A stretch of DNA of 64,000 nt from a virus. Below the pieces are notes generated by a model. That model ran no database searches and was not told where the DNA came from. It was given only the letters and a program-made list of their open reading frames with translations. The translations under genes were made by a program, and so were the position numbers. This document shows positions 38,012 to 59,061 of this stretch, one piece after another; the stretch's first letter is position 1, and each line of letters opens with the position of its first letter. The stretch spans positions 1-64,000 of the IMG/VR virus record IMGVR_UViG_3300008267_000780; one strand, given 5' to 3'.

Positions 38012-38389
38012 ATGAATATTAAAAAGGATTTTTTTAAAGGAGTTAGTCTTTACGCCACTGAATCTTCGGTTCAAGAATCAGAAGTTCAAGTGCGATTGAC
38101 TATTGGTCAGAGTGAATCTGAGCCTATCAATTATCAATGGTGCATTAATTGGCAGCCCAATCGTAATACGAATTATAACGAGGTTATGGGTCGCAAAATT
38201 ATCAATATCACTGAGGCTTTAGTGGCACCTATGTTGCATCAAGCAATGGTCAAGTGGGCAAGAACTCTTGACATTTCATTAGAAAATTTTAGTGGTTTCT
38301 TGTTCAAGAAAGACGATGTTATTGGTGTTGCTATCTACGATAAGACAACCCCAAAAAAATTATGTCCAATTGAAGAATTACTTGGATGA
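38012..38389 (+). CDS. hypothetical protein
   Basis: ORF coupled to the fibre gene. Confidence 0.65.
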   Translation: MNIKKDFFKGVSLYATESSVQESEVQVRLTIGQSESEPINYQWCINWQPNRNTNYNEVMGRKIINITEALVAPMLHQAMVKWARTLDISLENFSGFLFKKDDVIGVAIYDKTTPKKLCPIEELLG

Positions 38390-42022: not shown

Positions 42023-43786
42023 ATGACAAACATAGAAACCCCTTTATTTAGAGTAGAGTATGTAAAAGACGAAAACAAGATTTTTGTTTACTACAATGAG
42101 AAAAATCCAATTGATGTCAGTATTTCAGTAGCCGATATAGATTCAAAGCACGCGATTTACGCGTTTGATTCTCATTTCAGGGACTATTCAGGATGTTGGA
42201 ATGTTCCCGTTCCCTTGGGCGCATTGCATCACTACAATCGCACGGGATACTTCAGGGGATATGAGGTTTCTATTTACACTGCGGACAGAACTACGCTGTT
42301 GGAACAACATACAATTTGGTACAACGAAAATGCTCCAAAATTTGAGAGAGTTTTGTTCCCGACAGACCCTTGGAATTTGACGTGGATTAACTATACGGAA
42401 ATGTTTGTTGAAGACTTTTACAATCCACTCCAAATGAATATCAAAGGTGTATGCTTGGATATCGGGGCTAACGATGGACTGTACACCGAATATTTGCTGC
42501 GTAATGGAGCGGAAAGGGTTTATGCAGTAGAATGTGACCCTCGAAGCATTAAGTTTCTGAACAAGCGATTCAATGGCGACACAAGGGTTGTAATTGTTGA
42601 CAAAGGTTTATGGAATGCAAACCAAAACGGTGTAAAGTTAGCCTACAAAGAAGATACAAGCACTGTTTCATCCATCAAAACTGAAGTTCATCACTTCGAT
42701 GAAAACAATTATTTCTACATCGATACTTGGGATTATGCAACCCTAAAAAGCAAAATGAATATCAGCAAAGTAGATTTTTTCAAAATTGATATTGAAGGTG
42801 CGGAATATGAGGTTTTCGAATCAATGACCGATGATGACATTTGCGAAATTGAAGGTTTTATGGTTGAAATTCATTGGAACTCAAATGGTCGTATTTATGG
42901 TATCACCGATAGATTGCAAAGATTAGGATACTCAATCGAACTTCGCAGACACACCGTGGACAATGCTGTAATAGAGAACCGTGATGAATGGAAGGACTAC
43001 GACCTGTGCACATTCTACGCTTCAAAAAAAAAAGAACCTCGGAAGTTTAGTTTAGTCATTCATCACTTACAAACGACTCTGTTGACTGATGTTGAAAAGC
43101 AAAGTCGTGATAAAATTGATTTTCTAATTTATTTGTTGAAAAAAGATTCTCGTTTTAGTGAGGTCAAGTGGTATCGTCATATGAATGCTCCTTGGAAAGA
43201 ATTACCCACTACCGAAAATTGCAATAGACCAAATGCGGTGTCTATGGAACAATTTCCAAATGGCACGAATGAATATGGGCAAACTGCCCTAACACCTGCA
43301 CATTATGGTTGTTTTAGAGCATTCAATGATGCCATTCAGATGAAGTTCAATCAGGATTTTTCAGCAACAATGGTATTTGAGGGGGACGCGGACATTCAGG
43401 ATGTGAATCAATACATTGAATGCCTATATGCTGCATTGTGCGAGGCCGACAAAAATCAAATTGACTTCATTTCATTCGGAGGCGCGTATCATTTAGAAAC
43501 AGGCGATTTATTGGCGCATCCTGTAGAACGCATTGATGCTTTGCCTTTTGGGTGGATTTCGAAACACGTTCCTTTTGCGCATTCGATAATTATTCCTCAG
43601 AGATACATCAGACAGATGATGCACGCCTTTGCAAAGGAGCCTTGGGATGTTGCTGATTTATTTTTTATCAATCATTTTAATATGAATCCTGACAGAAGGC
43701 AATTTGTAAGTGAAATTCAACTCAGTCATCAAATTGATGGGTATTCACTAATTGACAAAAAGATTAAAAATTACTTAATCAAATGA
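42023..43786 (+). CDS. FkbM methyltransferase-GT-A (GT25-like) fusion
   Basis: LDIGANDG, KIDIEGAE; HYGC..AF, VFEGDA. Confidence 0.8.
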   Translation: MTNIETPLFRVEYVKDENKIFVYYNEKNPIDVSISVADIDSKHAIYAFDSHFRDYSGCWNVPVPLGALHHYNRTGYFRGYEVSIYTADRTTLLEQHTIWYNENAPKFERVLFPTDPWNLTWINYTEMFVEDFYNPLQMNIKGVCLDIGANDGLYTEYLLRNGAERVYAVECDPRSIKFLNKRFNGDTRVVIVDKGLWNANQNGVKLAYKEDTSTVSSIKTEVHHFDENNYFYIDTWDYATLKSKMNISKVDFFKIDIEGAEYEVFESMTDDDICEIEGFMVEIHWNSNGRIYGITDRLQRLGYSIELRRHTVDNAVIENRDEWKDYDLCTFYASKKKEPRKFSLVIHHLQTTLLTDVEKQSRDKIDFLIYLLKKDSRFSEVKWYRHMNAPWKELPTTENCNRPNAVSMEQFPNGTNEYGQTALTPAHYGCFRAFNDAIQMKFNQDFSATMVFEGDADIQDVNQYIECLYAALCEADKNQIDFISFGGAYHLETGDLLAHPVERIDALPFGWISKHVPFAHSIIIPQRYIRQMMHAFAKEPWDVADLFFINHFNMNPDRRQFVSEIQLSHQIDGYSLIDKKIKNYLIK

Positions 43787-45930
43787 GAATCGCACATATT
43801 CAACCAAGCGTAATTTCAGTCCCCCCAAATGGATGGGGGGCAATTGAAAAAATCATTTGGGAATACAAAATGGTTTTGAATCAGTTAGGACACGTCTGCG
43901 AAGTAGTCAATTTGCAAGATTTAAAGGCCGAAGAATGGGACGTTGTTCATTGCCATATGTTTGACCAAGCATTGTGGTTGGCCGAACAAAAAATCCCATA
44001 TTTCTATTCTCACCACGACCATCATTCGATAGTGTGGGGTGAAGAAAGTGCTAACTATCAATTAAATCTGAAAGCAATGAGACTTGCTGAGGTTGCCTTT
44101 GTTCACGCGAAAAGTAGTATTGAGGTCTTCAAAAATATCCCTTATTATTTGAGTCACGGTGTCAATACTGAATTCTTTAATTTTGTAGAGCCGAAAGGTA
44201 TTGATGAGCCAAATATTATTATTGTAGGAAACAATGGTTTGGCGGGGACTGAGAAAGTATTTGACCGAAAAGGATTCAGATATGCAATAGAGGCGGCACG
44301 TGAATTAAAGTGGTCAATTACTATGGTTGGCCCCAAAGCAACCCAAGAACAGTTTCTTAGGGAAAACCCTGATTTGCAGTATGAAAAATTAAGGTTGGTT
44401 TTTGATGCGGACGAAGAGCAGTTGAAGAAAGAACTACAGAATGCTCATTTAATGATTCACGCTACGTTTGTAGAGGCAGGTCATCCCCCTTTAACACCGT
44501 TGGAAGCAATGTCTTGCGGGGTCCCTGTAATTGGCACACCAATGGGTGACGATGTGCCTCAAATAGTATGTGAAAGAACTACCGAAAGCGTAGTGGAAGG
44601 AATTAAACAATTTGTATTTCAGAGACACGCATTAATTGAAGAAGCACGTCAAATTGCCGAAAATTACGATTGGAAAATTATTGTAGAAAATAATTTATTG
44701 AAATGGTATTTTGAGGTATTGGACCGAAACAATATGGCTAACACGGCCCGTAGAATTTACCATCAATCGACCATCAATAAAGTGCAAGACACTATGATGT
44801 TCAAGTATTTAGATGGTGCAAGGGTTGATTTGGTTGGCAGTAGCGACTTTAAATACAAATCAGAATTATTTATTCAAGACACTCAAGAAGTTATTTACGG
44901 TTGTGAAATAAAATGCGGGATGTTCGCACAATCTGCAAGAAAATATCATCGTAACTATGCTTGGAAAATCACAGATGAAAAGGGGAACGAATTCATTCAA
45001 CCTTACGATGCAAAAAACAAAAGGGTTTACGTGGCCATCGAAAGTTCAAGTTTAGGAGATTCCTTGGCTTGGATGCCGATTATAGAAGAGTTCAGATTGG
45101 TTCACTCCTGTAAATTGATTGTAAGCACTTTTTGGAACGATATGTTCAAGGATGCATATCCTGAAATTGAATTTATCAGGGCAGGTACACCCGTGAATAA
45201 TATTTACGCGATGTACAGAATAGGTTGGTATTATGAAAACGATGGATTGGATGTTCATTTTGGACATCATTCGAGGGATTTTCGCAAATTCTCACTGCAA
45301 GGTACGGCCTGTGATATATTGGGCTTGCCCGACATTGAAGTCAAACCCAAAATAAAAGAAGTTGAAGGTCAAAAATTCAATAAAAAATATGTGGTTATTG
45401 CACCTCACGCTTCGAGTCATTGCAAATATTGGCACAATGAAGAAGGATGGGCTAAAGTGGTCGAATTTTTAAACGACTTGGGATATGAAGTTTGGAACAT
45501 CTCAAAAGAGTCTGCATCAAGCGATTGGGAGAATTCTAAGTTGCCAAAAAACGCCTTAAAAAATGTAATTGATAAGACAGGAGACATACATATAGACGAA
45601 AGGATTTCTCAAATAAAATCCTCATCTTTGTTTATTGGATTAGGGAGCGGACTTTCGTGGTTGGCTTGGGCCTGTAGTACACCTGTTGTCCTAATAAGTG
45701 GTTTCTCAAGGCCTGTAAGCGAATTTACGGATTGTACCCGTGTCTTTAATCAAAATGTGTGTAATGGATGCTTTAACGATTACAGGCTTGATGCAGGTAA
45801 TTGGAATTGGTGCCCTAAATATGAAAATACTGACAAAATGTATGAATGCAGTAAGTCGATTACTCCTGAACAAGTAATTGATGCAATTAGGAAAACACTA
45901 AACAAGCACCAAACAGCACCCGATGGCTAA
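43783..45930 (+). CDS. GT4 domain fused to TibC/Aah-like O-heptosyltransferase
   Basis: GWGAIE, EAMSCG; SSSLGDSLAW, KYW, FIGLGSGLSWLAW, ISGFS.P..EF, iron-finger CNGC...WCP...EC. Confidence 0.85.
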   Translation: MRIAHIQPSVISVPPNGWGAIEKIIWEYKMVLNQLGHVCEVVNLQDLKAEEWDVVHCHMFDQALWLAEQKIPYFYSHHDHHSIVWGEESANYQLNLKAMRLAEVAFVHAKSSIEVFKNIPYYLSHGVNTEFFNFVEPKGIDEPNIIIVGNNGLAGTEKVFDRKGFRYAIEAARELKWSITMVGPKATQEQFLRENPDLQYEKLRLVFDADEEQLKKELQNAHLMIHATFVEAGHPPLTPLEAMSCGVPVIGTPMGDDVPQIVCERTTESVVEGIKQFVFQRHALIEEARQIAENYDWKIIVENNLLKWYFEVLDRNNMANTARRIYHQSTINKVQDTMMFKYLDGARVDLVGSSDFKYKSELFIQDTQEVIYGCEIKCGMFAQSARKYHRNYAWKITDEKGNEFIQPYDAKNKRVYVAIESSSLGDSLAWMPIIEEFRLVHSCKLIVSTFWNDMFKDAYPEIEFIRAGTPVNNIYAMYRIGWYYENDGLDVHFGHHSRDFRKFSLQGTACDILGLPDIEVKPKIKEVEGQKFNKKYVVIAPHASSHCKYWHNEEGWAKVVEFLNDLGYEVWNISKESASSDWENSKLPKNALKNVIDKTGDIHIDERISQIKSSSLFIGLGSGLSWLAWACSTPVVLISGFSRPVSEFTDCTRVFNQNVCNGCFNDYRLDAGNWNWCPKYENTDKMYECSKSITPEQVIDAIRKTLNKHQTAPDG

Positions 45931-48900
45931 AAACATTTTAATCACACCCTATAGGAATTCCACGAATCCTTTAGAGTTACCAAAAATAGACTTCATAAAT
46001 GGCTCTACGGCCATTACGCTTCAAGTTGAAGAAACTACACAGTCGATAACTTATGTTGGTTCTGCAGGCACGCTTTTGCAAATCAATAATGATTTAACAG
46101 GCACAACCGTATCCACAAAAAACATTGCAATTACAGGTGTTATTAAAAACACAGGTATAACCTCGAATTCGGGGTTAAATGATTTTGTGGTAGTTGATAT
46201 TGCTACGGGTCAGTTTTACTACCGTAGTGCACCAACGGGTACTTCAGGTTCTTCGGGTCAAAGCGGCACAAGCGGAACTTCAGGAGCCAACGGCTCTTCG
46301 GGTACTTCGGGAGCCAACGGCTCAAGTGGTACTTCAGGGGCCAATGGTTCGTCAGGTACCTCAGGGGCGAATGGCTCATCAGGAACATCGGCATCAAGTG
46401 GAACTTCAGGCTCTACAGGTTCGTCGGGAACTTCAGGTGCAAATGGTTCATCAGGGACATCAGGTGTAAATGGTTCATCAGGAACATCAGGAACATCGGG
46501 TGAAAATGGTAGTTCGGGAACATCGGGAGAAAATGGCTCTTCAGGAACATCAGGTGAAAATGGTAGTTCAGGAACATCGGGCGAAAATGGCTCAAGTGGA
46601 ACATCAGGTGAAAATGGTAGTTCGGGAACATCGGGTGAAAATGGTTCAAGTGGAAGTTCGGGTACTTCAGGAGCAAACGGAAGTTCAGGAACTTCAGGCG
46701 CAAATGGAACATCAGGTACATCGGGAGGCAGTGGAGCGTCAATAAGTGATGGTTGGGATTGGGGTACACCAATTAATGCAACCAAAATGTATTCAAGCAA
46801 TGGTGCTTTGGATTCATCCTCAGTCTTATTGAATATTTCGGAAACTTCGTTGACATCTCAAAACTATGCGAGTCAATTTTCATTGATTGGTATTGGTTCA
46901 AAAATTACAACACGGGGTGGATTGTTTGGAGCAAATGTGACGGAATGGGAAGTTACATCTGTAACCGATTCAGGCACATATTATGAATTTGGTGTAACTT
47001 ATCTTTCAGGTACTCAATGGACTCCATCAACGGGAGACGATATTTTATGTGATTTTGCTATTGCGGGTCAAGCGGGAACAAGTGGAACTGCGGGAACGTC
47101 AGGTGCCAATGGTTCTTCGGGAACGTCAGGGGCGAATGGCACATCAGGCACATCAGGAGAAAATGGAACAAGCGGAACATCGGGCTCTACAGGTTCATCA
47201 GGAACTTCGGGAGCGGGGGTTGCTAATTATTATGCTCAATATAGCAGTAGCGTATCACAGGCTATTGCAGTAGTTAATACCCCTCAAGTTATCACTTATA
47301 ATACCGTCGAAATAGAAAATGGTATTAGTTTTTCAGGAGGTCAAATAACCGTACAATACTCAGGTATTTACGAATTTAGTTTTTCTCCACAAGTTGAAAA
47401 AACACAGGGTGGTACAGCAGTCAACGTAGATTTTTTCATTAGAAAAAACGGATTTGACGTAATCAGAACAGATTCTATCATTGGATTGGTATCCAATAGT
47501 CAATTACAACTTCCTTTTGTTTCTTTGACTTTAGAGTTGTTACAAAATGACTTTATTGAGTTACTATTTGCATCCTCAAGTACGTTTGTTCAAATAACTG
47601 CGGAAGCCGCTAAAACTACACCATTTGTGGCCCCCGCTGCACCATCTGTAATTGTAAGCCTTAAAAATATTGGTGTTGCAGCGGTGGCTTATACCTCTAC
47701 ATCAGGAAGTTCAGGACAAAGTGGTACTGCAGGGGTTTCGGGAACAAGTGGTTCTACAGGAACTTCAGGTTCTTCAGGCGAAAGCGGAACAGCAGGTACT
47801 TCGGGTATTGCAGGTACTTCGGGTACTTCGGGCGATAGTGGTTCAAGTGGAACGTCAGGAACAGGAGGTTCGTCAGGTTCTTCAGGCGATAGTGGTTCAA
47901 GTGGAACTTCAGGAACAGGTGGTTCAAGCGGTACTTCAGGAACAGGAGGTTCATCGGGTTCTTCAGGAAATAGTGGTTCAAGTGGAACTTCAGGAACAGG
48001 AGGTTCAAGTGGTACTTCAGGAACAGGAGGTTCATCGGGTTCTTCAGGAAATAGTGGTTCAAGTGGAACTTCAGGAACAGGCGGTTCGTCAGGTTCTTCA
48101 GGGAATAGTGGTTCAAGCGGCACTTCAGGAACAGGAGGTTCGTCAGGTTCTTCAGGCGATAGTGGTTCAAGTGGAACTTCAGGAACAGGCGGTTCAAGCG
48201 GTACTTCAGGAACAGGAGGTTCAAGCGGTACTTCAGGAACAGGAGGTTCGTCAGGTTCTTCAGGCGATAGTGGTTCAAGTGGAACTTCAGGAACAGGCGG
48301 TTCGTCAGGTTCTTCAGGCGATAGTGGTTCAAGTGGTACTTCAGGAACAGGCGGTTCAAGTGGTACTTCAGGTTCATCGGGTTCAAGCGGAAGCACGGGG
48401 ACATCGGGCTCAACGGGCTCAAGCGGGTCAAGCGGAAGCGCAGGAACGTCAGGTTCAACAGGTTCAAGCGGAAGTGCAGGAACCTCAGGCTCTACAGGTT
48501 CATCAGGAACGTCAGGCTCTACGGGTTCATCGGGAACATCGGCATCAAGTGGAAGTTCAGGTAGCGCAGGTACTTCAGGAGAAAGCGGTAGCGCAGGTAC
48601 TTCAGGTTCTACAGGTTCAAGCGGTTCAAGCGGAAGCACGGGGACATCGGGCTCAACGGGCTCAAGCGGGTCAAGCGGAAGCGCAGGAACAGGCGGTTCA
48701 AGCGGTACTTCAGGAACAGGAGGTTCGTCAGGTTCGTCAGGCGATAGTGGTTCAAGTGGAACTTCAGGAACAGGCGGTTCAAGCGGTACTTCAGGAACAG
48801 GCGGTTCGTCAGGTTCTTCAGGCGATAGTGGTTCAAGTGGAACTTCAGGAACAGGCGGTTCAAGTGGTACTTCAGGTTCATCGGGTTCAAGCGGAAGCAC

Positions 48901-51900
48901 GGGGACATCGGGCTCAACGGGCTCAAGCGGGTCAAGCGGAAGCGCAGGAACGTCGGGTTCAACAGGAACAAGTGGTAGCACGGGAACATCGGGTTCTTCA
49001 GGAACAAGTGGAAGCACGGGTTCAAGCGGTTCAACAGGTTCAAGTGGTACTTCGGGCTCAAGCGGTACGAGCGGTAGCACGGGTTCAAGTGGTACAAGCG
49101 GTTCTACAGGAACTTCGGGTTCTGCAGGAAGTGCAGGCTCAAGTGGTTCAACGGGTTCTTCAGGAACATCGGGCTCAAGCGGTACAAGCGGTAGCACAGG
49201 TTCTTCGGGTTCTACAGGTTCTTCAGGCACATCAGGTTCATCAGCAACTTCGGGCTCTGCAGGCTCTTCGGGAACTGCGGGTTCTGCAGGTTCATCAGGA
49301 ACTTCAGGGGCAAATGGTTCATCGGGAACAAGCGGAAGCGCGGGTTCTTCGGGTTCTACAGGTTCATCAGGCACATCAGGCTCAAGCGGAACATCAGGAA
49401 GCGCGGGTTCAAGCGGTTCAACAGGTTCAAGTGGTACATCGGGCTCAAGCGGTACGAGCGGTAGCACGGGCTCAAGTGGTTCTACGGGTTCTTCAGGAAC
49501 ATCAGGTTCTACAGGTTCTTCGGGGTCTACAGGAACATCAGGTTCTACAGGAACTTCAGGTTCAAGTGGTTCATCAGGAACTTCGGGCGCAAATGGTTCA
49601 AGCGGAACGAGCGGAAGTGCGGGTTCAAGCGGTTCAACGGGTTCATCAGGAACGAGCGGCTCAAGTGGAACGAGCGGAAGTACAGGCTCAAGCGGTTCAA
49701 CAGGGTCCTCAGGAACTTCAGGTTCTTCAGGAACATCGGCATCAAGCGGAACTTCAGGAACTGCAGGTACTTCAGGAAGTGCAGGAACTTCAGGTGAAAA
49801 CGGTTCTTCAGGAACGTCAGGCTCAAGCGGAAGTGCGGGTTCAACAGGTTCTTCAGGAACCTCAGGTTCAAGCGGAACGAGTGGTAGCACAGGCTCAAGT
49901 GGTTCTACAGGCTCAAGTGGTACTTCGGGTTCGTCAGCAACTTCAGGCTCTACGGGTTCATCAGGAACCTCGGGAGCGAATGGCTCTTCAGGTACTTCAG
50001 GTTCATCAGGAAGTGCAGGTACGAGTGGTTCAACAGGCTCAAGCGGAACCTCAGGTTCTTCAGGAACAAGCGGAAGCACAGGTTCAAGCGGTTCAACAGG
50101 CTCAAGCGGAACCTCAGGTACATCAGCAACTTCGGGTTCTGCAGGTTCAAGCGGTACATCGGGTTCTACGGGTTCATCGGGAACATCGGGTTCTGCAGGT
50201 TCATCAGGAACCTCAGGTTCTGTAGGTTCTTCAGGAACTTCGGGTTCTGCAGGCTCAAGCGGTACAAGTGGAAGCACGGGTTCAAGTGGTTCAACAGGTT
50301 CATCAGGAACGTCAGGTACGTCAGCAACGTCGGGTTCTGCGGGTTCAAGCGGTTCAACAGGTTCAAGCGGAACGTCAGGCTCAAGCGGTACGAGCGGTAG
50401 CACGGGTTCAAGTGGTTCTACGGGTTCAAGTGGTACTTCGGGTTCTACGGGTTCAAGCGGCACTTCGGGTGCAAATGGTTCAAGTGGTACAAGCGGTTCT
50501 GCAGGTTCGTCAGGAACTGCAGGTTCTGCAGGTTCATCAGGAACCTCAGGTGCAAATGGCTCATCAGGTACATCGGGTTCATCAGGAAGCGCAGGCTCAA
50601 GTGGTTCAACGGGTTCAAGCGGAACATCGGGTTCTTCAGGAACAAGCGGAAGCACGGGTTCAAGCGGTTCTACGGGTTCATCAGGAACTTCGGGTTCTGC
50701 AGGAACCTCAGGTTCAAGTGGTTCTTCAGGAACATCGGGAGCGAATGGTTCAAGCGGAACGAGCGGAAGTGCGGGTTCAAGCGGGTCAACAGGTTCATCA
50801 GGAACGAGCGGCTCAAGCGGAACAAGCGGAAGCACAGGGTCAAGTGGGTCAACAGGTTCATCAGGAACGTCAGGTTCATCAGGAACTTCGGCATCGAGCG
50901 GAAGTTCAGGAAGCGCAGGTACTTCAGGAAGTGCAGGAACATCAGGGGCAAATGGTTCATCAGGAACTTCAGGTTCTTCAGGAAGCGCAGGCTCATCGGG
51001 CTCTACGGGTTCTTCAGGAACGTCAGGTTCAAGCGGAACAAGCGGAAGTGCGGGTTCAAGCGGCTCTACGGGTTCTTCAGGAACGAGTGGTAGCGCGGGT
51101 TCTTCAGGCACATCAGGTTCTGCAGGCTCTTCAGGAACATCAGGAGCAAACGGCTCAAGTGGCACATCGGGCTCTTCAGGAAGCGCGGGCTCTTCGGGTT
51201 CTACAGGAAGTTCAGGAACCTCGGGTTCAAGTGGAACGAGCGGTAGCACAGGTTCTTCGGGTTCTACGGGCTCTTCAGGCACATCAGGCTCAAGCGGAAC
51301 ATCCGCATCAAGTGGTTCTTCGGGTACATCGGGTTCCGCAGGTTCTTCAGGAACCTCGGGAGCAAATGGCTCTTCAGGAACTTCGGGCTCTGCAGGTAGT
51401 GCGGGCTCAAGTGGTTCAACAGGCTCTTCAGGAACATCAGGGTCAAGCGGAACATCAGGAAGCACAGGTTCAAGTGGTTCTACGGGTTCGTCAGGAACTT
51501 CGGGTTCTTCAGCAACATCAGGCTCTGCGGGTTCTTCGGGAACGGCAGGCTCTTCAGGTTCTTCGGGAACTTCGGGCGCAAACGGCTCAAGTGGTACTTC
51601 AGGTTCTGCAGGTTCTACAGGCTCAAGTGGTACTTCGGGTTCTACAGGCTCAAGTGGTACTTCGGGTTCTTCAGGAACTTCGGGCACAGCGGGTTCAAGT
51701 GGTACTTCAGGAAGTACAGGCTCAAGCGGTTCTACGGGTTCATCAGGAACGAGTGGTTCTTCAGGCACCTCGGGTGCAAACGGTTCAAGCGGAACTTCGG
51801 GTTCTTCGGGTAGTGCGGGGTCAAGTGGCTCTACAGGCTCATCAGGAACATCAGGTTCAAGCGGTACAAGTGGTAGCACAGGTTCTTCAGGCTCTACGGG

Positions 51901-54900
51901 TTCTTCAGGGACATCAGGCTCATCAGCAACTTCGGGCTCTGCAGGTTCGTCAGGGACTTCAGGAAGTGCGGGTTCATCAGGTACTTCGGGAGCAAATGGT
52001 TCGAGCGGAACAAGCGGTAGCGCAGGTTCTTCGGGTTCTACAGGTTCATCAGGCACCTCAGGTTCAAGCGGAACAAGCGGAAGTGCAGGCTCAAGCGGTT
52101 CTACGGGTTCAAGCGGAACATCAGGCTCTGCAGGTTCAAGTGGCACTTCGGGTTCTGCAGGTTCTTCAGGAAGTGCGGGCTCATCAGGTACTTCAGGCGC
52201 AAATGGTTCAAGCGGAACAAGCGGAAGCGCAGGTTCTTCAGGAAGCACAGGTTCATCAGGAACATCGGGTTCTTCAGGAACAAGCGGTAGCACGGGTTCT
52301 TCGGGGTCTACAGGCTCAAGCGGAACAAGCGGTAGCGCAGGTTCTTCAGGAACATCGGCATCAAGTGGAAGTTCAGGAAGCGCAGGTACATCAGGAAGTT
52401 CAGGAACATCAGGGGCCAACGGCTCAAGCGGTACTTCAGGTTCTGCAGGCAGTGCGGGCTCAAGTGGTTCTACAGGTTCAAGTGGTACTTCGGGTTCATC
52501 AGGAACAAGTGGTAGCACGGGTTCAAGTGGTTCGACAGGTTCATCAGGTTCTACAGGCTCATCAGGTTCTACAGGGACTTCAGGCTCAAGCGGTTCATCA
52601 GGAACTTCAGGAGCAAACGGTTCAAGTGGTACAAGCGGTAGTGCGGGTTCGTCAGGTTCCACAGGTTCTTCAGGGACATCAGGCTCAAGCGGAACATCAG
52701 GAAGCGCGGGTTCAAGCGGCTCTACGGGCTCTTCAGGCACATCAGGTTCTTCAGCAACTTCGGGTTCTGCAGGTTCATCAGGAACTGCAGGCTCTGCAGG
52801 TTCTTCGGGAACTTCAGGTGCAAATGGCTCAAGCGGTTCAAGCGGAACAAGTGGTAGTTCGGGTTCTTCAGGCTCTACAGGTTCTTCAGGAACATCAGGT
52901 TCAAGCGGAACAAGCGGAAGCGCGGGTTCTTCGGGTTCAACGGGTTCAAGCGGTACAAGCGGCTCTTCAGGAACATCGGCATCAAGCGGAAGTTCAGGAA
53001 GCGCAGGCACATCAGGTAGTTCGGGTACTTCAGGAGCAAATGGTTCAAGTGGCTCAAGTGGAACAAGTGGTTCTTCAGGAAGCGCAGGTTCAACAGGGTC
53101 ATCAGGCTCATCAGGAACTTCGGGTTCGAGCGGAACAAGTGGTTCAACAGGTTCAAGCGGCTCTACGGGCTCAAGTGGGTCTACGGGTACATCGGGTTCA
53201 AGCGGTTCAAGCGGAACTTCGGGAGCAAATGGTTCAAGTGGTTCATCAGGAACAAGTGGTAGTGCAGGTTCAAGTGGAACAAGTGGTTCTGCGGGTTCAT
53301 CAGGAACATCAGGCTCTGCAGGCTCTTCGGGAACTTCAGGCACAGCGGGTTCAAGTGGAACATCAGGAACACGTGGTTCTTCAGGTTCATCAGGCTCTAC
53401 AGGTTCTTCAGGGACTTCGGGTTCATCAGGAACAAGTGGTAGCACGGGTTCATCAGGCTCTACAGGTTCAAGCGGAACATCAGGCTCTTCGGGAACATCT
53501 GCATCAAGCGGAAGTTCAGGAAGCGCGGGTACATCGGGCTCAAGCGGAACTTCAGGAGCGAATGGTTCGTCAGGTACTTCGGGCTCTTCAGGAAGTGCGG
53601 GTTCAAGCGGTTCAACAGGTTCTTCAGGCACATCAGGCTCAAGCGGTACATCAGGAAGCGCAGGTTCAAGTGGTTCTACAGGTTCTTCAGGAACAAGCGG
53701 TAGCGCAGGTTCTTCAGGCACATCGGGTTCTGCAGGCTCGTCAGGCACATCAGGTGCAAATGGCTCATCAGGAACATCGGGTTCTTCAGGTAGTGCGGGT
53801 TCATCGGGTTCTACGGGTTCTTCAGGAACATCAGGCTCAAGCGGTACATCAGGAAGCGCAGGTTCTTCAGGCTCTACAGGCTCAAGTGGAACAAGCGGTA
53901 GCGCAGGTTCTTCAGGCACATCAGGTTCTGCAGGCTCTTCAGGCACATCAGGTGCAAACGGTTCAAGTGGTACAAGTGGCTCAAGCGGAAGCGCAGGTTC
54001 AAGCGGTTCTACGGGAAGTTCAGGAACCTCGGGTTCAAGTGGAACAAGTGGTAGCACAGGTTCAAGCGGGTCAACAGGTTCAAGCGGAACGAGTGGTAGT
54101 GCAGGTTCTTCAGGAACATCAGGCTCGGCAGGTTCAAGCGGAACGAGTGGTAGCGCAGGTTCTTCAGGCACATCAGGCACAGCAGGTTCAAGTGGTACTT
54201 CGGGAACACGTGGTTCTTCAGGTTCATCAGGTTCTACAGGAACGAGCGGTTCAAGCGGAACAAGTGGAAGCACAGGTTCAAGCGGCTCTACGGGCTCAAG
54301 TGGTACTTCGGGTTCGTCAGGAACCTCGGCATCAAGCGGAAGTTCAGGAAGTGCGGGTACCTCAGGTAGTTCAGGAACTTCAGGGGCAAATGGCTCAAGT
54401 GGCTCAAGTGGAACAGCAGGTTCTTCAGGAAGCGCGGGTTCTTCAGGTTCTACAGGTTCTTCGGGAACAAGTGGTTCATCAGGAACGAGTGGTAGCACGG
54501 GCTCAAGCGGTTCTACAGGCTCAAGTGGGTCTACGGGAACATCGGGGTCAAGTGGCTCAAGCGGAACATCAGGGGCAAATGGCTCAAGTGGTTCTTCAGG
54601 AACGAGCGGAAGCGCAGGCTCATCAGGAACTTCGGGTTCAGCGGGCTCATCAGGAACGAGCGGAAGCGCAGGTTCAAGCGGAACAAGTGGTAGCGCAGGT
54701 TCAAGCGGGTCAACGGGCTCTTCGGGAACTTCAGGCTCAAGTGGCTCGTCGGGTACATCGGGTGCCAACGGCTCAAGTGGCTCAAGCGGAACAGCAGGTT
54801 CTTCAGGAAGTGCGGGTTCTACGGGTTCTTCAGGGTCTTCAGGCACAGCAGGGTCGTCAGGTACGGCAGGTTCTTCGGGTAGTGCGGGCTCAAGTGGCTC

Positions 54901-57900
54901 TACAGGCTCAAGCGGTACTGCGGGCTCAAGCGGCTCTTCAGGCACATCGGGTGCAAATGGCTCAAGTGGTTCTGCAGGTTCAAGTGGTACTTCAGGAACA
55001 GCAGGTTCAAGTGGTACTTCAGGAACGCGAGGTTCGTCAGGGTCATCAGGCTCTACAGGTTCAAGTGGGTCTACGGGTACGTCAGGCTCAAGCGGTTCAA
55101 GTGGCACATCGGGCTCGAGCGGGTCTTCAGGCACATCAGGAGCGAATGGTTCAAGCGGCTCTTCAGGAACAAGTGGTTCTTCAGGAAGCACGGGTTCAAG
55201 TGGGTCTACGGGTTCATCAGGAACAGCAGGTTCTTCAGGAAGTGCGGGTTCTACAGGGTCTTCAGGCTCTTCAGGAACAGCAGGTTCATCAGGTACATCG
55301 GCATCAAGTGGTAGTTCAGGAAGTGCAGGCACATCAGGCGCAAATGGCTCGAGCGGCTCAAGCGGAACGAGCGGTTCTTCAGGAAGCGCGGGTTCTACAG
55401 GGTCTTCAGGCTCTTCAGGAACAGCAGGTTCATCAGGCACATCGGGTTCTGCGGGTAGTGCAGGCTCAAGCGGCTCTACGGGCTCAAGCGGTACATCAGG
55501 CTCAAGCGGGTCTTCGGGTACATCAGGTGCAAATGGCTCAAGCGGTTCAAGTGGAACAAGCGGGTCTGCAGGTTCAAGTGGTTCTACGGGCTCATCGGGT
55601 TCGTCAGGAACTGCAGGTTCAAGCGGTACTGCAGGTTCTTCAGGTTCTACAGGCTCAAGCGGGTCTACGGGCTCAAGCGGAACTGCGGGTTCAAGCGGGT
55701 CTTCAGGCACATCGGGTGCAAATGGCTCAAGCGGTTCAAGTGGAACAAGTGGTTCTGCGGGGTCTTCGGGAACTTCGGGAACAGCGGGGTCAAGCGGTAC
55801 TTCAGGAACTCGGGGTTCATCGGGTTCATCGGGTTCGACAGGCTCAAGTGGTTCAACGGGTACATCAGGCTCAAGCGGTTCGAGCGGAAGCGCGGGTACG
55901 TCAGGTGCAAACGGTTCGAGCGGAACAAGCGGTTCTTCAGGAAGTGCGGGTTCTACAGGCTCTTCAGGCTCTTCAGGAACAAGTGGTTCAAGCGGAACAA
56001 GCGGAAGTGCAGGTTCAAGCGGTTCTACAGGCTCAAGTGGGTCTACGGGTACTTCGGGCTCAAGTGGCTCAAGCGGAAGTGCAGGCACATCAGGTGCAAA
56101 CGGTTCTTCAGGAACGGCAGGTTCTTCAGGAAGCGCAGGTTCAAGTGGGTCTACGGGTTCTTCAGGAACTGCAGGTTCTTCAGGTAGTGCAGGTTCTACG
56201 GGTTCTTCGGGTTCTTCAGGAACTGCGGGTTCGAGTGGAACTTCGGGCTCATCAGGAAGCGCAGGTTCAAGCGGAAGCGCGGGTACATCGGGTGCAAATG
56301 GTTCAAGCGGAACTTCGGGCTCATCAGGAAGTGCAGGTTCTACGGGCTCATCAGGTTCGTCAGGAACTGCAGGCTCAAGTGGAACATCAGGAACGAGGGG
56401 TTCTTCAGGCTCAAGCGGTTCTACGGGTTCCTCAGGCTCCACAGGAACCTCAGGCTCAAGCGGAAGCGCAGGCACATCAGGTGCAAACGGTTCTTCAGGA
56501 ACGTCAGGTTCTTCAGGAAGCGCAGGTTCAAGTGGGTCGACAGGGTCAAGTGGAACATCAGGTTCTTCAGGAAGTGCGGGTTCTACAGGCTCATCAGGTT
56601 CTTCGGGAACAGCGGGTTCATCAGGAACATCGGCATCAAGTGGAAGTTCAGGAAGCGCAGGTACTTCAGGGGCAAACGGTTCTTCGGGTACTTCGGGCTC
56701 ATCAGGAAGCGCAGGTTCTACGGGCTCATCAGGCTCAAGCGGAACAGCGGGCTCATCAGGAAGCGCAGGTTCGAGTGGCTCTACAGGGTCAAGCGGAACA
56801 GCGGGCTCATCAGGAAGTGCAGGTTCTACGGGTTCAAGCGGTTCTACGGGTACATCGGGCTCAAGCGGTTCGAGTGGAAACACGGGGGCAGCGGGGTCAA
56901 GCGGAACGAGTGGGTCTTCAGGTAGCGCAGGTTCAACGGGTTCGAGCGGGTCTTCAGGAACTGCGGGTTCTTCAGGAACATCGGGCACAAGAGGTTCATC
57001 AGGTTCAAGTGGGTCTACAGGTTCGAGTGGTTCTACGGGTACATCAGGCTCAAGCGGTTCGAGTGGAAACACAGGAGCAGCGGGGTCAAGCGGAACGAGC
57101 GGGTCTTCAGGAAGTGCAGGTTCGACAGGTTCAAGTGGTTCTACAGGTACATCGGGCTCAAGCGGTTCGAGTGGAAACACGGGCGCAGCGGGTTCAAGTG
57201 GAACGAGCGGGTCTTCAGGCAGCGCAGGTTCGACAGGTTCAAGTGGTTCTACGGGTACATCGGGCTCAAGCGGTTCGAGTGGAAACACAGGTGCTGCGGG
57301 TTCAAGTGGAACGAGCGGTTCGAGTGGAAACACAGGTGCGGCAGGTTCTTCGGGAACTTCAGGCTCAAGCGGCTCAAGTGGTAACACAGGTGCGGCAGGT
57401 TCAAGCGGAACGAGCGGTTCGAGTGGAAACACAGGAGCGGCAGGTTCTTCGGGAACTTCAGGCTCAAGCGGCTCAAGTGGTAACACAGGTGCGGCAGGTT
57501 CAAGCGGAACGAGCGGTTCGAGTGGAAACACGGGTGCGGCAGGTTCATCAGGGACTTCAGGTGCAAACGGTGCTGCGGGCTCAAGCGGAACAAGCGGTTC
57601 ATCAGGAACTTCAGGCGCAAACGGAGCGGCAGGTTCTTCAGGAACGTCGGGTACACGAGGTTCATCAGGAACTTCGGGCGCAAACGGAGCAAACGGTTCG
57701 TCAGGAACTTCAGGCGCAAACGGAGCAAATGGTTCGTCAGGAACTTCGGGAGCAAATGGAGCGGCAGGTTCTTCGGGAACTTCGGGCGCAAATGGAGCGG
57801 CAGGTTCCTCGGGAACTTCGGGTACACGTGGTTCAAGTGGAACATCGGGTGCAAATGGAGCAAATGGTTCATCAGGTACGTCAGGCGCGAATGGAGCAAA

Positions 57901-58474
57901 CGGTTCATCAGGTACATCAGGCGCGAATGGGGCGGCAGGTGCTGCAGGTTCATCAGGTACGAGCGGTACGAGCGTAGCGGTGAGCGGTACGACAAACAGA
58001 ATCGTTAAATTCACTGCATCGACCACGATAGGAAACGCAAACGCGTCCGACGATGGAACGACATTCGAAGTATTGAATACGGTTGGATTTAAGGCAGCCA
58101 AATCGTTAGCGGTAGGTGCTTTGTCACCATCCGCAACCACAGGACGAATTGATGCTTCAAACGACATCGTAGCGTTCTCTACATCAGACAAACGATTCAA
58201 AGAAAACGTGAAGCGAATTGAAAACGCTCTCGAGAAAATCAAGACAATCGGTGGATACTCATTCGATTGGCGCGAGGAAGGCTTCGAGGCTCACGGATTC
58301 AAAGGAAGTGATGTCGGAGTAATCGCGCAGGAAATCGAATCAGTGTTGCCCGAAATCGTGAAGGTGAAAGCCAACGGATTCAAGGGTGTACGTTACGAAA
58401 AAATTATCGCCTTGGTGATTGAAGCAATCAAGGAGTTGGATGACAAAGTTGAACAATTAAAGAAGCAACAGTAA
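45923..58474 (+). CDS. giant 4183-aa collagen-like fibre with C1q/BclA-like internal domain and C-terminal peptidase S74 chaperone
   Basis: Gly at every third residue over about 3400 aa; ITVQYSGIYEFSF..FIRKNG; SDKRFKENV...GVIAQE...VRYEKIIALVIEAIKEL. Confidence 0.9.
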   Translation: MAKNILITPYRNSTNPLELPKIDFINGSTAITLQVEETTQSITYVGSAGTLLQINNDLTGTTVSTKNIAITGVIKNTGITSNSGLNDFVVVDIATGQFYYRSAPTGTSGSSGQSGTSGTSGANGSSGTSGANGSSGTSGANGSSGTSGANGSSGTSASSGTSGSTGSSGTSGANGSSGTSGVNGSSGTSGTSGENGSSGTSGENGSSGTSGENGSSGTSGENGSSGTSGENGSSGTSGENGSSGSSGTSGANGSSGTSGANGTSGTSGGSGASISDGWDWGTPINATKMYSSNGALDSSSVLLNISETSLTSQNYASQFSLIGIGSKITTRGGLFGANVTEWEVTSVTDSGTYYEFGVTYLSGTQWTPSTGDDILCDFAIAGQAGTSGTAGTSGANGSSGTSGANGTSGTSGENGTSGTSGSTGSSGTSGAGVANYYAQYSSSVSQAIAVVNTPQVITYNTVEIENGISFSGGQITVQYSGIYEFSFSPQVEKTQGGTAVNVDFFIRKNGFDVIRTDSIIGLVSNSQLQLPFVSLTLELLQNDFIELLFASSSTFVQITAEAAKTTPFVAPAAPSVIVSLKNIGVAAVAYTSTSGSSGQSGTAGVSGTSGSTGTSGSSGESGTAGTSGIAGTSGTSGDSGSSGTSGTGGSSGSSGDSGSSGTSGTGGSSGTSGTGGSSGSSGNSGSSGTSGTGGSSGTSGTGGSSGSSGNSGSSGTSGTGGSSGSSGNSGSSGTSGTGGSSGSSGDSGSSGTSGTGGSSGTSGTGGSSGTSGTGGSSGSSGDSGSSGTSGTGGSSGSSGDSGSSGTSGTGGSSGTSGSSGSSGSTGTSGSTGSSGSSGSAGTSGSTGSSGSAGTSGSTGSSGTSGSTGSSGTSASSGSSGSAGTSGESGSAGTSGSTGSSGSSGSTGTSGSTGSSGSSGSAGTGGSSGTSGTGGSSGSSGDSGSSGTSGTGGSSGTSGTGGSSGSSGDSGSSGTSGTGGSSGTSGSSGSSGSTGTSGSTGSSGSSGSAGTSGSTGTSGSTGTSGSSGTSGSTGSSGSTGSSGTSGSSGTSGSTGSSGTSGSTGTSGSAGSAGSSGSTGSSGTSGSSGTSGSTGSSGSTGSSGTSGSSATSGSAGSSGTAGSAGSSGTSGANGSSGTSGSAGSSGSTGSSGTSGSSGTSGSAGSSGSTGSSGTSGSSGTSGSTGSSGSTGSSGTSGSTGSSGSTGTSGSTGTSGSSGSSGTSGANGSSGTSGSAGSSGSTGSSGTSGSSGTSGSTGSSGSTGSSGTSGSSGTSASSGTSGTAGTSGSAGTSGENGSSGTSGSSGSAGSTGSSGTSGSSGTSGSTGSSGSTGSSGTSGSSATSGSTGSSGTSGANGSSGTSGSSGSAGTSGSTGSSGTSGSSGTSGSTGSSGSTGSSGTSGTSATSGSAGSSGTSGSTGSSGTSGSAGSSGTSGSVGSSGTSGSAGSSGTSGSTGSSGSTGSSGTSGTSATSGSAGSSGSTGSSGTSGSSGTSGSTGSSGSTGSSGTSGSTGSSGTSGANGSSGTSGSAGSSGTAGSAGSSGTSGANGSSGTSGSSGSAGSSGSTGSSGTSGSSGTSGSTGSSGSTGSSGTSGSAGTSGSSGSSGTSGANGSSGTSGSAGSSGSTGSSGTSGSSGTSGSTGSSGSTGSSGTSGSSGTSASSGSSGSAGTSGSAGTSGANGSSGTSGSSGSAGSSGSTGSSGTSGSSGTSGSAGSSGSTGSSGTSGSAGSSGTSGSAGSSGTSGANGSSGTSGSSGSAGSSGSTGSSGTSGSSGTSGSTGSSGSTGSSGTSGSSGTSASSGSSGTSGSAGSSGTSGANGSSGTSGSAGSAGSSGSTGSSGTSGSSGTSGSTGSSGSTGSSGTSGSSATSGSAGSSGTAGSSGSSGTSGANGSSGTSGSAGSTGSSGTSGSTGSSGTSGSSGTSGTAGSSGTSGSTGSSGSTGSSGTSGSSGTSGANGSSGTSGSSGSAGSSGSTGSSGTSGSSGTSGSTGSSGSTGSSGTSGSSATSGSAGSSGTSGSAGSSGTSGANGSSGTSGSAGSSGSTGSSGTSGSSGTSGSAGSSGSTGSSGTSGSAGSSGTSGSAGSSGSAGSSGTSGANGSSGTSGSAGSSGSTGSSGTSGSSGTSGSTGSSGSTGSSGTSGSAGSSGTSASSGSSGSAGTSGSSGTSGANGSSGTSGSAGSAGSSGSTGSSGTSGSSGTSGSTGSSGSTGSSGSTGSSGSTGTSGSSGSSGTSGANGSSGTSGSAGSSGSTGSSGTSGSSGTSGSAGSSGSTGSSGTSGSSATSGSAGSSGTAGSAGSSGTSGANGSSGSSGTSGSSGSSGSTGSSGTSGSSGTSGSAGSSGSTGSSGTSGSSGTSASSGSSGSAGTSGSSGTSGANGSSGSSGTSGSSGSAGSTGSSGSSGTSGSSGTSGSTGSSGSTGSSGSTGTSGSSGSSGTSGANGSSGSSGTSGSAGSSGTSGSAGSSGTSGSAGSSGTSGTAGSSGTSGTRGSSGSSGSTGSSGTSGSSGTSGSTGSSGSTGSSGTSGSSGTSASSGSSGSAGTSGSSGTSGANGSSGTSGSSGSAGSSGSTGSSGTSGSSGTSGSAGSSGSTGSSGTSGSAGSSGTSGSAGSSGTSGANGSSGTSGSSGSAGSSGSTGSSGTSGSSGTSGSAGSSGSTGSSGTSGSAGSSGTSGSAGSSGTSGANGSSGTSGSSGSAGSSGSTGSSGTSGSSGTSGSTGSSGSTGSSGTSGSAGSSGTSGSAGSSGTSGSAGSSGTSGTAGSSGTSGTRGSSGSSGSTGTSGSSGTSGSTGSSGSTGSSGTSGSSGTSASSGSSGSAGTSGSSGTSGANGSSGSSGTAGSSGSAGSSGSTGSSGTSGSSGTSGSTGSSGSTGSSGSTGTSGSSGSSGTSGANGSSGSSGTSGSAGSSGTSGSAGSSGTSGSAGSSGTSGSAGSSGSTGSSGTSGSSGSSGTSGANGSSGSSGTAGSSGSAGSTGSSGSSGTAGSSGTAGSSGSAGSSGSTGSSGTAGSSGSSGTSGANGSSGSAGSSGTSGTAGSSGTSGTRGSSGSSGSTGSSGSTGTSGSSGSSGTSGSSGSSGTSGANGSSGSSGTSGSSGSTGSSGSTGSSGTAGSSGSAGSTGSSGSSGTAGSSGTSASSGSSGSAGTSGANGSSGSSGTSGSSGSAGSTGSSGSSGTAGSSGTSGSAGSAGSSGSTGSSGTSGSSGSSGTSGANGSSGSSGTSGSAGSSGSTGSSGSSGTAGSSGTAGSSGSTGSSGSTGSSGTAGSSGSSGTSGANGSSGSSGTSGSAGSSGTSGTAGSSGTSGTRGSSGSSGSTGSSGSTGTSGSSGSSGSAGTSGANGSSGTSGSSGSAGSTGSSGSSGTSGSSGTSGSAGSSGSTGSSGSTGTSGSSGSSGSAGTSGANGSSGTAGSSGSAGSSGSTGSSGTAGSSGSAGSTGSSGSSGTAGSSGTSGSSGSAGSSGSAGTSGANGSSGTSGSSGSAGSTGSSGSSGTAGSSGTSGTRGSSGSSGSTGSSGSTGTSGSSGSAGTSGANGSSGTSGSSGSAGSSGSTGSSGTSGSSGSAGSTGSSGSSGTAGSSGTSASSGSSGSAGTSGANGSSGTSGSSGSAGSTGSSGSSGTAGSSGSAGSSGSTGSSGTAGSSGSAGSTGSSGSTGTSGSSGSSGNTGAAGSSGTSGSSGSAGSTGSSGSSGTAGSSGTSGTRGSSGSSGSTGSSGSTGTSGSSGSSGNTGAAGSSGTSGSSGSAGSTGSSGSTGTSGSSGSSGNTGAAGSSGTSGSSGSAGSTGSSGSTGTSGSSGSSGNTGAAGSSGTSGSSGNTGAAGSSGTSGSSGSSGNTGAAGSSGTSGSSGNTGAAGSSGTSGSSGSSGNTGAAGSSGTSGSSGNTGAAGSSGTSGANGAAGSSGTSGSSGTSGANGAAGSSGTSGTRGSSGTSGANGANGSSGTSGANGANGSSGTSGANGAAGSSGTSGANGAAGSSGTSGTRGSSGTSGANGANGSSGTSGANGANGSSGTSGANGAAGAAGSSGTSGTSVAVSGTTNRIVKFTASTTIGNANASDDGTTFEVLNTVGFKAAKSLAVGALSPSATTGRIDASNDIVAFSTSDKRFKENVKRIENALEKIKTIGGYSFDWREEGFEAHGFKGSDVGVIAQEIESVLPEIVKVKANGFKGVRYEKIIALVIEAIKELDDKVEQLKKQQ
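47702..57973 (+). repeat. 10.3-kb degenerate 9-bp-period coding repeat (Gly-X-Y; X,Y mostly Ser/Thr/Ala/Asn)
   Basis: directly visible; internal block duplications, e.g. 48361-48450 versus 48870-48960. Confidence 0.95.
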
Positions 58475-59061
58475 TGGCAGTACCAACATCAAATATAAGT
58501 ATGAGCGCAATTTACGGGGAGGCCAACGTAGGTGGCCCCCCGAGCGACTTGGCGGTTAGTGACTTATTCAAATTGTCATATTTTGAAAGTAACGCTTTCG
58601 GTGGTCCCTTGGCATATAATGCTTGGGGTATTTATGGAAATGCGAGTGGCGCAGACAGAATTTATGGACTTTCGGCAAGTAACACCAATAATAACTTTAA
58701 TCAATTTGCGAGCAAAGTTTACTATATGGATAATTCAACGTATGCTAACTATGTAGATGTAGTCAACAATTTAGTAGCACCCCCCCCTCCTGACCCACCT
58801 GATTTGAACGATATAACTGTTTTTTGTAGATTATATGATTCTACAGGTGTTTATCAATATAGTTTGTTTCAGTCCTTAATAGCCGCAGGTGGTAGTGCAA
58901 GTCAAATATTTAGTAACACGACTGAACCTATTTTGGCAGTAGCATATTGGGAAGTTCAGTTTCAGCCATCGAGTCCTATGTTTGCAGGTACAACGTGTAA
59001 TATAGATATAAATAATATTAGTAGCATCAAATTCATCAGGGTACATTGGCACTTACTTTGA
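58474..59061 (+). CDS. fibre tip/adhesin-like protein
   Basis: MAVPTSNISMSAIYGE N-terminus is typical of partners of S74-chaperoned fibres; 3' end possibly frameshifted. Confidence 0.6.
   Translation: MAVPTSNISMSAIYGEANVGGPPSDLAVSDLFKLSYFESNAFGGPLAYNAWGIYGNASGADRIYGLSASNTNNNFNQFASKVYYMDNSTYANYVDVVNNLVAPPPPDPPDLNDITVFCRLYDSTGVYQYSLFQSLIAAGGSASQIFSNTTEPILAVAYWEVQFQPSSPMFAGTTCNIDINNISSIKFIRVHWHLL

Follow-up and report, generated by a model that had tools for sequence, protein, structure and literature searches.

A giant proline-free Gly-X-Y fibre gene beside a TibC-type glycosyltransferase gene in an uncultured freshwater virus: a candidate glycosylated collagen-type virion fibre

The DNA analysed here (the window) comprises the first 64 kb of the 74,717-bp IMG/VR virus record IMGVR_UViG_3300008267_000780, for which CheckV estimates a completeness of 89%. 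Positions 45923 to 58474 of its + strand hold one gene for a protein of 4183 amino acids (aa), most of which is a single Gly-X-Y tract without proline and nearly without charge, and the start of this gene is overlapped by that of an enzyme related to TibC and Aah, the protein O-heptosyltransferases of bacterial adhesins. We propose that the product is a glycosylated collagen-type virion fibre about 1 µm long, and assign to this mechanism as a whole a probability of about one half. The parts of the gene are the following.

45923–58474, + strand: giant fibre gene, 4183 aa
45923–46237, + strand: N-terminal domain, residues 1–105, presumed virion anchor; no family match
46238–46741, + strand: Gly-X-Y tract 1, residues 106–273; 56 triplets, proline-free, one Gly-to-Ala change
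46742–47065, + strand: globular domain, residues 274–381, between tracts 1 and 2
47066–47218, + strand: Gly-X-Y tract 2, residues 382–432; 17 triplets
47219–47704, + strand: BclA/C1q/TNF-like jelly-roll domain, residues 433–594, predicted trimerising knob (AlphaFold2 and Foldseek)
47705–57973, + strand: main Gly-X-Y tract, residues 595–4017; 1141 triplets, 3423 residues
57974–58183, + strand: distal tip, residues 4018–4087, which would be left after the predicted S74 self-cleavage; aligns with 8jov_1
58184–58471, + strand: Peptidase_S74 intramolecular chaperone (Pfam E 1e-16), with Ser4088 and Lys4093

The main tract keeps a single unbroken register across its 1141 triplets. Position 1 is occupied by 1124 Gly and 17 Ala, the longest Gly-perfect run measuring 148 triplets, and the Ala-bearing triplets are always ASS or ATS; they are spaced irregularly, at 21–148 triplets, and may be hinges. 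Ser and Thr make up 57% of the tract, there is neither Pro nor Lys, and the charged residues amount to 7 Asp, 3 Glu and 8 Arg (18 among 3423). The commonest triplets are GSS (462), GTS (274), GST (136) and GSA (108); Ser (717), Thr (337) and Ala (62) prevail at X, and Ser (767), Ala (155), Thr (145) and Asn (48) at Y. An Asn-Gly-Ser sequon arises at each GAN-GSS junction (the tract has 47 GAN triplets). The first-pass annotation, made from the letters alone, had described about 1140 triplets at 47.7–58.0 kb with no Pro, almost no charge and a contour of about 1 micron. Our count bears this out, the coordinates given for the open reading frame (ORF) were exact, and at the axial rise of collagen, 0.286 nm per residue, the predicted contour of 3423 residues is ~0.98 µm.

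Pfam Collagen (PF01391 / IPR008160) matches a 441-aa piece of the main tract with E 3e-67, another piece with E 8e-30 and tract 1 with E 3e-26. A PDB sequence search with a tract segment was uninformative: all that it matched, through glycine periodicity, were animal collagens and a placeholder chain. The protein thus has the long (Gly-X-Y)n run of collagen repeat proteins and, next to it, domains suited to trimerisation and registration (the jelly roll and S74). What it does not have in the main tract is any sequence-encoded stabiliser, neither imino acids nor Lys-Gly-Glu/Asp pairs. Collagen folding and stability have been tied to imino acids or to Lys-Glu/Asp clamps, the clamps being reported as anomalously frequent across life and viruses (PMC11923368).

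A possible substitute is encoded immediately upstream. The gene at 43783–45930 overlaps the fibre start by 8 nt, and its product scores 315.3 bits against NCBIfam TIGR04414 (hepto_Aah_TibC; cut-off 200), covering profile positions 7–373 of 374, while its C-terminal half matches TibC (4rap) with E 1e-58. In TibC, Asp110 is the catalytic base, Thr226, Lys230, Arg286 and Trp305 contact the sugar, and Pro300 is a site of donor stereoselectivity (PMC4358343). The equivalents of D110, K230, R286, W305 and S294 are kept, T226 is replaced by Ser, and four of four Cys of the iron finger (Cys339, 342, 358 and 370) align. The finger is also kept in the related assemblies G001 and G004, and is lost in a group of loci with 34–36% identity (L033–L035). 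Judged by these residues and scores, the enzyme truly belongs to the family of protein-serine O-heptosyltransferases. G004 has the same three enzyme genes upstream of its fibre gene, its TibC-type enzyme being 68% identical to that of the window. No autotransporter was found within the window, the neighbouring candidate acceptor being the Gly-X-Y fibre. Since a true TibC relative lies directly before it, the fibre is probably sugar-coated, and by analogy with the family the adjacent enzymes would O-glycosylate the Ser and Thr of the tract. The first-pass annotation had suggested that stability depends on adjacent glycosyltransferases. With GT4 domains and a TIGR04414 enzyme whose gene overlaps the fibre start, the tie between fibre and enzymes is stronger than the sequence alone had shown, whereas a dependence of stability on the sugars is a conjecture.

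Viral loci elsewhere point the same way. In IMG/VR the TibC-type domain has relatives encoded in more than 456 stretches, and we analysed the loci around the best 80, counting as a tract at least 15 Gly-X-Y triplets. Such a tract was present in 33 of the 52 loci of at least 12 kb; among the 35 tract-bearing loci overall, 33 had tracts with <2% Pro and 31 with >50% Ser/Thr. As a control, 80 loci were chosen by the S74 domain alone, of which 75 remained once the window's own lineage was removed. The enzyme occurred in 10 of the 75, and eight of these 10 had a Pro-poor tract. When these loci were reduced to 41 clusters, a Ser/Thr-rich charge-free tract was present in 5 and missing from 3 of the clusters with the enzyme; for enzyme-free clusters the corresponding numbers were 2 and 31 (Fisher p = 0.0014). 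Three further enzyme-free clusters have tracts that are Pro-poor but charge-rich, with 46% DEKR in the main group. Phage collagens lacking Pro therefore appear to be of two kinds, one salt-bridged, the other Ser/Thr-rich and accompanied by a TibC-type enzyme (L169–L184 against L118, L159, L160 and L181 among the S74-selected viral loci). This association is the best indirect support for the idea that sugars replace the missing stabilisers.

As to phages with names, Microcystis phage Mel-JY01 (PP395634; L193, 3065–8430) is the sole named, host-assigned phage record with a TibC homologue in the collection, the other three being uncultured metagenomic phages of 636–735 kb. Its TibC-like domain stands at the end of a 1226-aa protein that is annotated 'FkbM', beside a Ser-rich structural protein with ISSS repeats and no Gly-X-Y.

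The non-repetitive domains of the fibre are informative to different degrees. Neither the N-terminal domain nor the globular domain (residues 274–381) has a Pfam or PHROG match, and in the protein atlas they lead to viral hypothetical proteins and viral hypothetical clusters only, respectively. Residues 433–594, by contrast, have 3267 representative relatives, and an AlphaFold2 model built with 45 of them as alignment reaches pLDDT 95.3. The top Foldseek matches, all with probability 1.0, are BclA (1wck; E 9e-8, TM 0.57/0.65), F-BclA (9h38), BxpB/ExsF, C1q and TNF-family ligands, C1q/TNF chains giving TM up to 0.68/0.80; the predicted model is a ten-strand jelly roll superposable on BclA and C1q. 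Against Pfam BclA_C (PF18573), the window's own domain gives no family match at E <0.01, and 20 of the 46 aligned relatives do match. Gly-X-Y tracts occur in 36 of the 150 listed relatives, many with 20–30% Pro at X/Y; in the closest relatives the stalks before the head are Pro-free and >80% Ser/Thr. Because Pro-rich and Pro-free tracts fill the same architectural slot, we argue that they are structurally equivalent. Distant fibres that have just the BclA-like domain in common with the window (L011 and L013) show no glycosyltransferases among their neighbours.

The C-terminus matches Peptidase_S74 (PF13884) with 61.2 bits against a cut-off of 22, and a second profile search gives 62.7 bits at 58184–58363. 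The dyad Ser4088 and Lys4093 lies in SDKRFK, which aligns with SDRRIK of T5 pb1 (6f45; E 4e-13), and residues 4018–4087 align with the pre-chaperone part of the tail-fibre chain 8jov_1. In a control search the S74 family was also present in E. coli and Bacteroides genomes. The earlier description of the tract as bracketed by a C1q/BclA-like domain and an autocleaving S74 chaperone thus stands for the chaperone, cleavage itself being predicted, and for the fold of the other domain; as a bracket the latter fails, since it is no cap, has its place on the proximal side of the giant tract, and is optional, G004 being without it.

The fibre gene belongs to a block of seven co-directional genes (38386–59061), joined by overlaps of 1–8 nt and with a single 18-nt gap. 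Its other members are listed below.

38386–39267, + strand: Pro-free Ser/Thr collagen-like protein, 293 aa, ~45 triplets (PHROG tail-fibre families; Pfam Collagen)
39267–40037, + strand: fibre-like protein, 256 aa, sharing an N-terminal motif with the 293-aa protein (phrog_28536, phrog_17490)
40034–42004, + strand: GT4 glycosyltransferase fused to an FkbM methyltransferase (profile searches)
42023–43786, + strand: FkbM-family methyltransferase, the C-terminal half without assignment (profile searches)
43783–45930, + strand: GT4 (N-terminal half) fused to the TibC/Aah-type O-heptosyltransferase (residues 333–704; TIGR04414)
58474–59061, + strand: ORF of 195 aa whose start overlaps the fibre stop codon; no Pfam, PHROG or NCBIfam match

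The 293-aa protein is a likely second acceptor for glycosylation. Promoter-like sites were at chance level in a promoter scan; terminator-like sites exceeded shuffled sequences (14 vs 8.0; 11 vs 2.8), and none marks the ends of the block. At 59017, between genes after the 195-aa ORF, contigs of three other runs hold ~73 extra nt.

In the proposed mechanism, the gene is a structural gene of an uncultured freshwater virus and its product would be a homotrimeric fibre. The chains would be registered by the C-terminal S74 chaperone, self-cut at Ser4088, and by the BclA/TNF-like knob, after which the 1141-triplet tract would zip from its C- to its N-terminus into an extended three-chain collagen-type helix of ~1 µm; in relatives the fibre would reach ~1.3 µm. 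Trimerisation, self-cleavage and the direction of zipping are taken from what is known of the respective families, and a triple helix in the main tract is likewise a proposal. The Ser/Thr hydroxyls would serve as acceptors for the TibC-type O-heptosyltransferase–GT4, the second GT4 and the two FkbM methyltransferases, and short, possibly methylated O-glycans would stiffen and stabilise the helix. The N-terminal domain would anchor the thread on the virion, and the thread might widen the capture radius for scarce host cells or particles, first contact being made by the 70-residue tip or by the sugar coat. If its persistence length is tens of nm, a worm-like chain of 1 µm would sweep out a few hundred nm in radius, which is several times as large as a particle packaging 84 kb. 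Two points of this scheme are speculative: the need of the helix for the sugars, and the role of the thread in long-range capture. The strongest version, an obligately glycan-dependent collagen forming a helix of >1 µm without Pro or salt bridges and acting as a capture thread of >10 capsid diameters on a large, apparently tailless virus with terminal inverted repeats, is one that we hold to be doubtful.

Several observations count against a glycosylated collagen-type fibre. Known TibC substrates are beta-helical autotransporters, not collagen. The Pro300 equivalent of the window's enzyme is Gly, and because this is a donor-selectivity site, a sugar other than heptose may be transferred; genes for heptose synthesis were not seen in the virus. 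For a straight fibre it is geometrically odd that the BclA-like knob should sit on the proximal side of the giant tract. The total length comes from short-read assemblies, and the association statistics given above derive from few, partly related clusters. Finally, none of the stabilisers that collagen sequences are known to encode, namely imino acids and KGE/KGD salt bridges (PMC11923368), is present, and even (Gly-Pro-Thr)10 without sugars is a random coil, as cited in the same source.

A rival reading is a mucin-like tether, that is, a heavily O-glycosylated, extended, non-helical bottle-brush that is trimeric just at the knob and the tip, its Gly periodicity being a by-product of amplified repeat units with lengths in multiples of 9 nt. 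A tract with so much Ser and Thr, no Pro and no charge pairs, a dedicated O-glycosylation gene cluster, higher-order DNA repeats with units of 54–216 nt and the Ser-rich, Gly-X-Y-free neighbour of the Mel-JY01 enzyme are all in line with it. Nevertheless we consider such a tether rather unlikely, given the way in which the frame is maintained. The repeats are degenerate (65–97% matches) and synonymous sites are near saturation, yet Gly persists at 1124 of 1141 positions, with Ala as its sole substitute here and in G004. Within the 9-nt triplet unit, the entropy of the Gly codon is 0, 0.11 and 1.71 bits at positions 1, 2 and 3. Over 1054 codons in collinear blocks, the window and G001 differ at 83 third positions, by 4 amino-acid replacements, and not once at Gly positions 1 and 2. 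Because third-position changes so outnumber replacements, the frame is translated and did not stay open by chance, and Gly, X and Y are all under purifying selection, which is strong at Gly. A disordered brush has no need of Gly at each third residue, and X and Y are conserved as well; trimerising modules at both ends are a further difficulty for it.

Some other glycine-rich fold, such as polyglycine-II bundles or sheets, or a non-supercoiled triple helix, would make the object shorter or thicker. Polyglycine-II occurs in the snow-flea antifreeze protein and in the gp38 adhesin of phage S16. X and Y are nearly all small residues, which would fit, and there is a precedent in the non-supercoiled collagen-type helices of the peptide assemblies treated in PMC11869133. 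We regard such folds as improbable: the tract has no turn-forming breaks, its perfect runs of 20–148 triplets being parted by in-register Gly-to-Ala changes alone, no hydrophobic or Gly-Gly packing face is apparent, and the modules at both ends are those of parallel trimers.

The fibre discussed so far presupposes the assembled length, and a tract inflated by short-read assembly, the true gene being much shorter or split, has to be weighed. Among 31-mers of the main tract 10% are non-unique, Logan k=31 contigs break throughout it, and no single read or contig spans the tract; the contig joints are repeat cross-matches with sides of <30 nt, and no inference was taken from them. Two stretches of the G004 fibre (L025; residues 3514–3554 and the C-terminal 25 residues) are repeat-like in a shifted frame, and may be assembly errors or real frameshifts. 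However, the longest exact internal DNA repeat in the 10.3-kb tract is 113 nt, every 127-mer is unique, and a single frame stays open for 12.5 kb and closes with an in-frame S74 domain; moreover, collapse of repeats would shorten a tract, not lengthen it. In 19 public runs from 18 studies (freshwater, riverine, and labelled 'fungus metagenome'), 76–88% of 31-mers sampled from 47000–56999, a 10-kb stretch covering most of the tract, are present. Four of the runs, from four studies, cover 30 of 30 bins of 45.0–59.5 kb, and in them unique internal pieces of 300–500 nt recur without difference and at the depth of the flanks.

Assemblies from other samples agree with this. An orthologous fibre gene is found in four other IMG/VR assemblies (G001, G002, G003 and G005), whose N-terminal domains are 96% identical to that of the window, as compared with 58% in G004. 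In G001, G002 and G005 the gene is identical across 16,017 nt (5338 aa, 1511 triplets), and G003 is one 135-nt indel apart from G001, so that the triplet counts of the four are 1496–1511. The fibre genes of the window and G001 are collinear, with every offset a multiple of 9 nt, and in G004 the frame is open over at least 4410 aa and includes roughly 1400 triplets in register. We therefore give little credence to an assembly artefact: across these genomes, micrometre length is a trait that the lineage conserves. For the window itself the assembled length, and with it the exact triplet count, has support that falls short of proof, as the tract is not crossed by any long read. A near-identity search with 22 kb of the window against deposited phages gave no match, and a word search for giant relatives found just four proteins, all of them distant and none exceeding 377 triplets in total.

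The DNA of the tract bears the mark of its genome. In the 74.7-kb genome AGCT, CCGG, CTAG and GATC are each absent, CATG occurs once and CCAG/CTGG once, where 120–270 per strand are expected. The genome of G004 (L036) purges the same tetranucleotides except CATG, present 38 times in 21 kb. All four CCN-GGN spellings of Pro-Gly contain CCGG, CCAG or CTGG, and with these purged Gly-X-Pro-Gly is unwritable in this genome. The same bans explain why NCT and NCC are scarce at Y, where the next Gly codon would complete CTGG or CCGG: TCT and ACT are used 229 and 108 times at X, and 1 and 0 times at Y. Since the main tract obeys the bans of its genome, it must have evolved inside it, which also speaks against an assembly artefact. 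The first-pass annotation had proposed that a Pro-Gly codon ban would itself exclude Gly-X-Pro triplets; the ban is real and has this effect, but it is not the cause of the Pro-free composition. Pro at X (GGN-CCN) is not banned, GGNCC occurring 99 times in the genome, and is still absent from the tract. Among 17 loci with Pro-free Ser/Thr tracts on unrelated contigs (the own-lineage L036 aside), 15 are without a CCGG purge and all 17 contain CCAG. The ban was accordingly rejected as an explanation.

The type of virion is less clear than the fibre gene. A complete relative, G002, is 84,420 bp long and has a perfect 127-bp inverted terminal repeat. Searches of PHROG, Pfam and NCBIfam with the ORFs of the window and with the extra 9 kb of G002 gave no match to terminase, portal, HK97 capsid, sheath or tape measure; a protein-primed polymerase (PF03175) was not found either, a result made uninformative by a control that was equally silent. 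A large non-tailed virus lineage is plausible. A 232-aa protein (29490–30188) with more than 1277 metagenome homologues at 63–96% identity was considered as capsid protein. Its model has a jelly-roll-like core with an AlphaFold2 pLDDT of only 64 and no Foldseek match at E ≤0.001, the best VIA Z being 6.0, over many jelly-roll proteins and nucleoplasmin; the weak model and scattered structural matches leave this candidate unproven. Its homologues occur in metagenome-assembled genomes labelled Bathyarchaeia, Planktophila, Sediminibacterium and Chlamydiales, which belong to four unrelated phyla, placements that most likely reflect mis-binning, and no TibC homologue was found in those genomes. Elsewhere in the window, the ORF at 21920–23035 encodes DUF2958 fused to a RelA/SpoT-type small alarmone synthetase domain (Pfam E 8e-16).

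Because a non-tailed virus is plausible, we call the product a virion fibre and not a tail fibre. It is improbable that it is no part of the virion at all and that the infected cell makes it for another purpose, as a coat on or outside the cell in the manner of the BclA nap, as a decoy or as a matrix. In favour of this, heads of the BclA type typically occur in the surface naps of spores, no known virion adaptor matches the N-terminal domain, and the searches assigned no virion type. Against it, the S74 entry of Pfam is annotated from the phage endosialidase chaperone, the PDB matches are phage tail fibres (6f45 and 8jov_1), and the gene closes a co-directional late block behind two other fibre-like genes.

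Collagen-like phage fibres, S74 chaperones and BclA-type glycosylated collagen are already known. In the searchable literature we found no relevant account joining collagen-like proteins with TibC or a heptosyltransferase, and four features are without description there: a tract free of Pro and nearly free of charge, an adjoining viral set of TibC-type enzymes, micrometre length, and a virus with inverted terminal repeats that lacks recognisable tail genes. The virus is not rare, near-identical sequence being present in the 19 runs mentioned above. With its Gly register under strict selection and its stabilisers missing, the tract is a stringent natural experiment on whether a triple helix can be held by O-glycosylation and nothing else; if it can, collagen would have a third means of stabilisation, one written by enzymes. 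A thread of 1–1.3 µm on a particle of ~0.1 µm would change adsorption models in dilute fresh water, and a Pro-free, charge-free collagen that can be glycosylated enzymatically would be of interest as a recombinant biomaterial.

Phage fibres have long been known to include collagen-like segments. The side-tail proteins EPclA and EPclB of E. coli O157:H7 prophages are likewise collagen-like, as described in PMC3368898. EPclA is short and, in the account of PMC11923368, stabilised by Pro at X and ~22% charged residues; the tract of the window has neither X-Pro nor appreciable charge, is tens of times longer and belongs to a virus that shows no tail genes. Length by itself is not unprecedented, as bacterial collagens of up to 6000 aa have been counted in bulk (PMC11923368). 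At its end the fibre resembles S74 phage fibres and spikes such as T5 pb1 and the K1F endosialidase, which have a C-terminal self-cleaving trimerisation chaperone (self-cleavage being predicted for the window). With BclA of B. anthracis, and with F-BclA and BclA3, it shares a Thr-rich Gly-X-Y stalk and a trimerising jelly-roll head of the same fold; the BclA stalk is O-glycosylated (cited in PMC11923368, reference 27). BclA, however, is mostly Gly-Pro-Thr with fewer than ~80 triplets and carries its head at the C-terminus, whereas here Pro is absent from 1141 triplets, the head lies within the chain, which closes with an S74 chaperone, and the glycosyltransferase is of the TibC type.

The nearest parallel for stabilisation is the cuticle collagen of Riftia. 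According to work cited in PMC11923368 (references 28 and 103), O-glycosylated Thr at Y can take the place of hydroxyproline in stabilising the helix there, as it does in galactosylated (Gly-Pro-Thr)10. These sequences still contain Pro, the glycan and enzymes are animal, and in the window's tract Ser exceeds Thr by ~3:1 and occupies both X and Y. For the enzyme, the parallel is with TibC-TibA and Aah-AIDA-I of E. coli (4RAP, 4RB4; PMC4358343). The window's protein agrees with these in its equivalog score, catalytic Asp, Lys/Arg/Trp contacts and four-Cys finger, and its gene lies beside that of a huge, Ser-rich, repetitive surface protein just as tibC lies beside tibA. It differs in its fusion to GT4, in Gly at the Pro300 position, in being viral, and in a presumed acceptor that would be a Gly-X-Y tract and not a beta-helix. 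Should the fibre prove to be its substrate, the TibC/Aah family would extend from bacterial adhesins to viral fibres.

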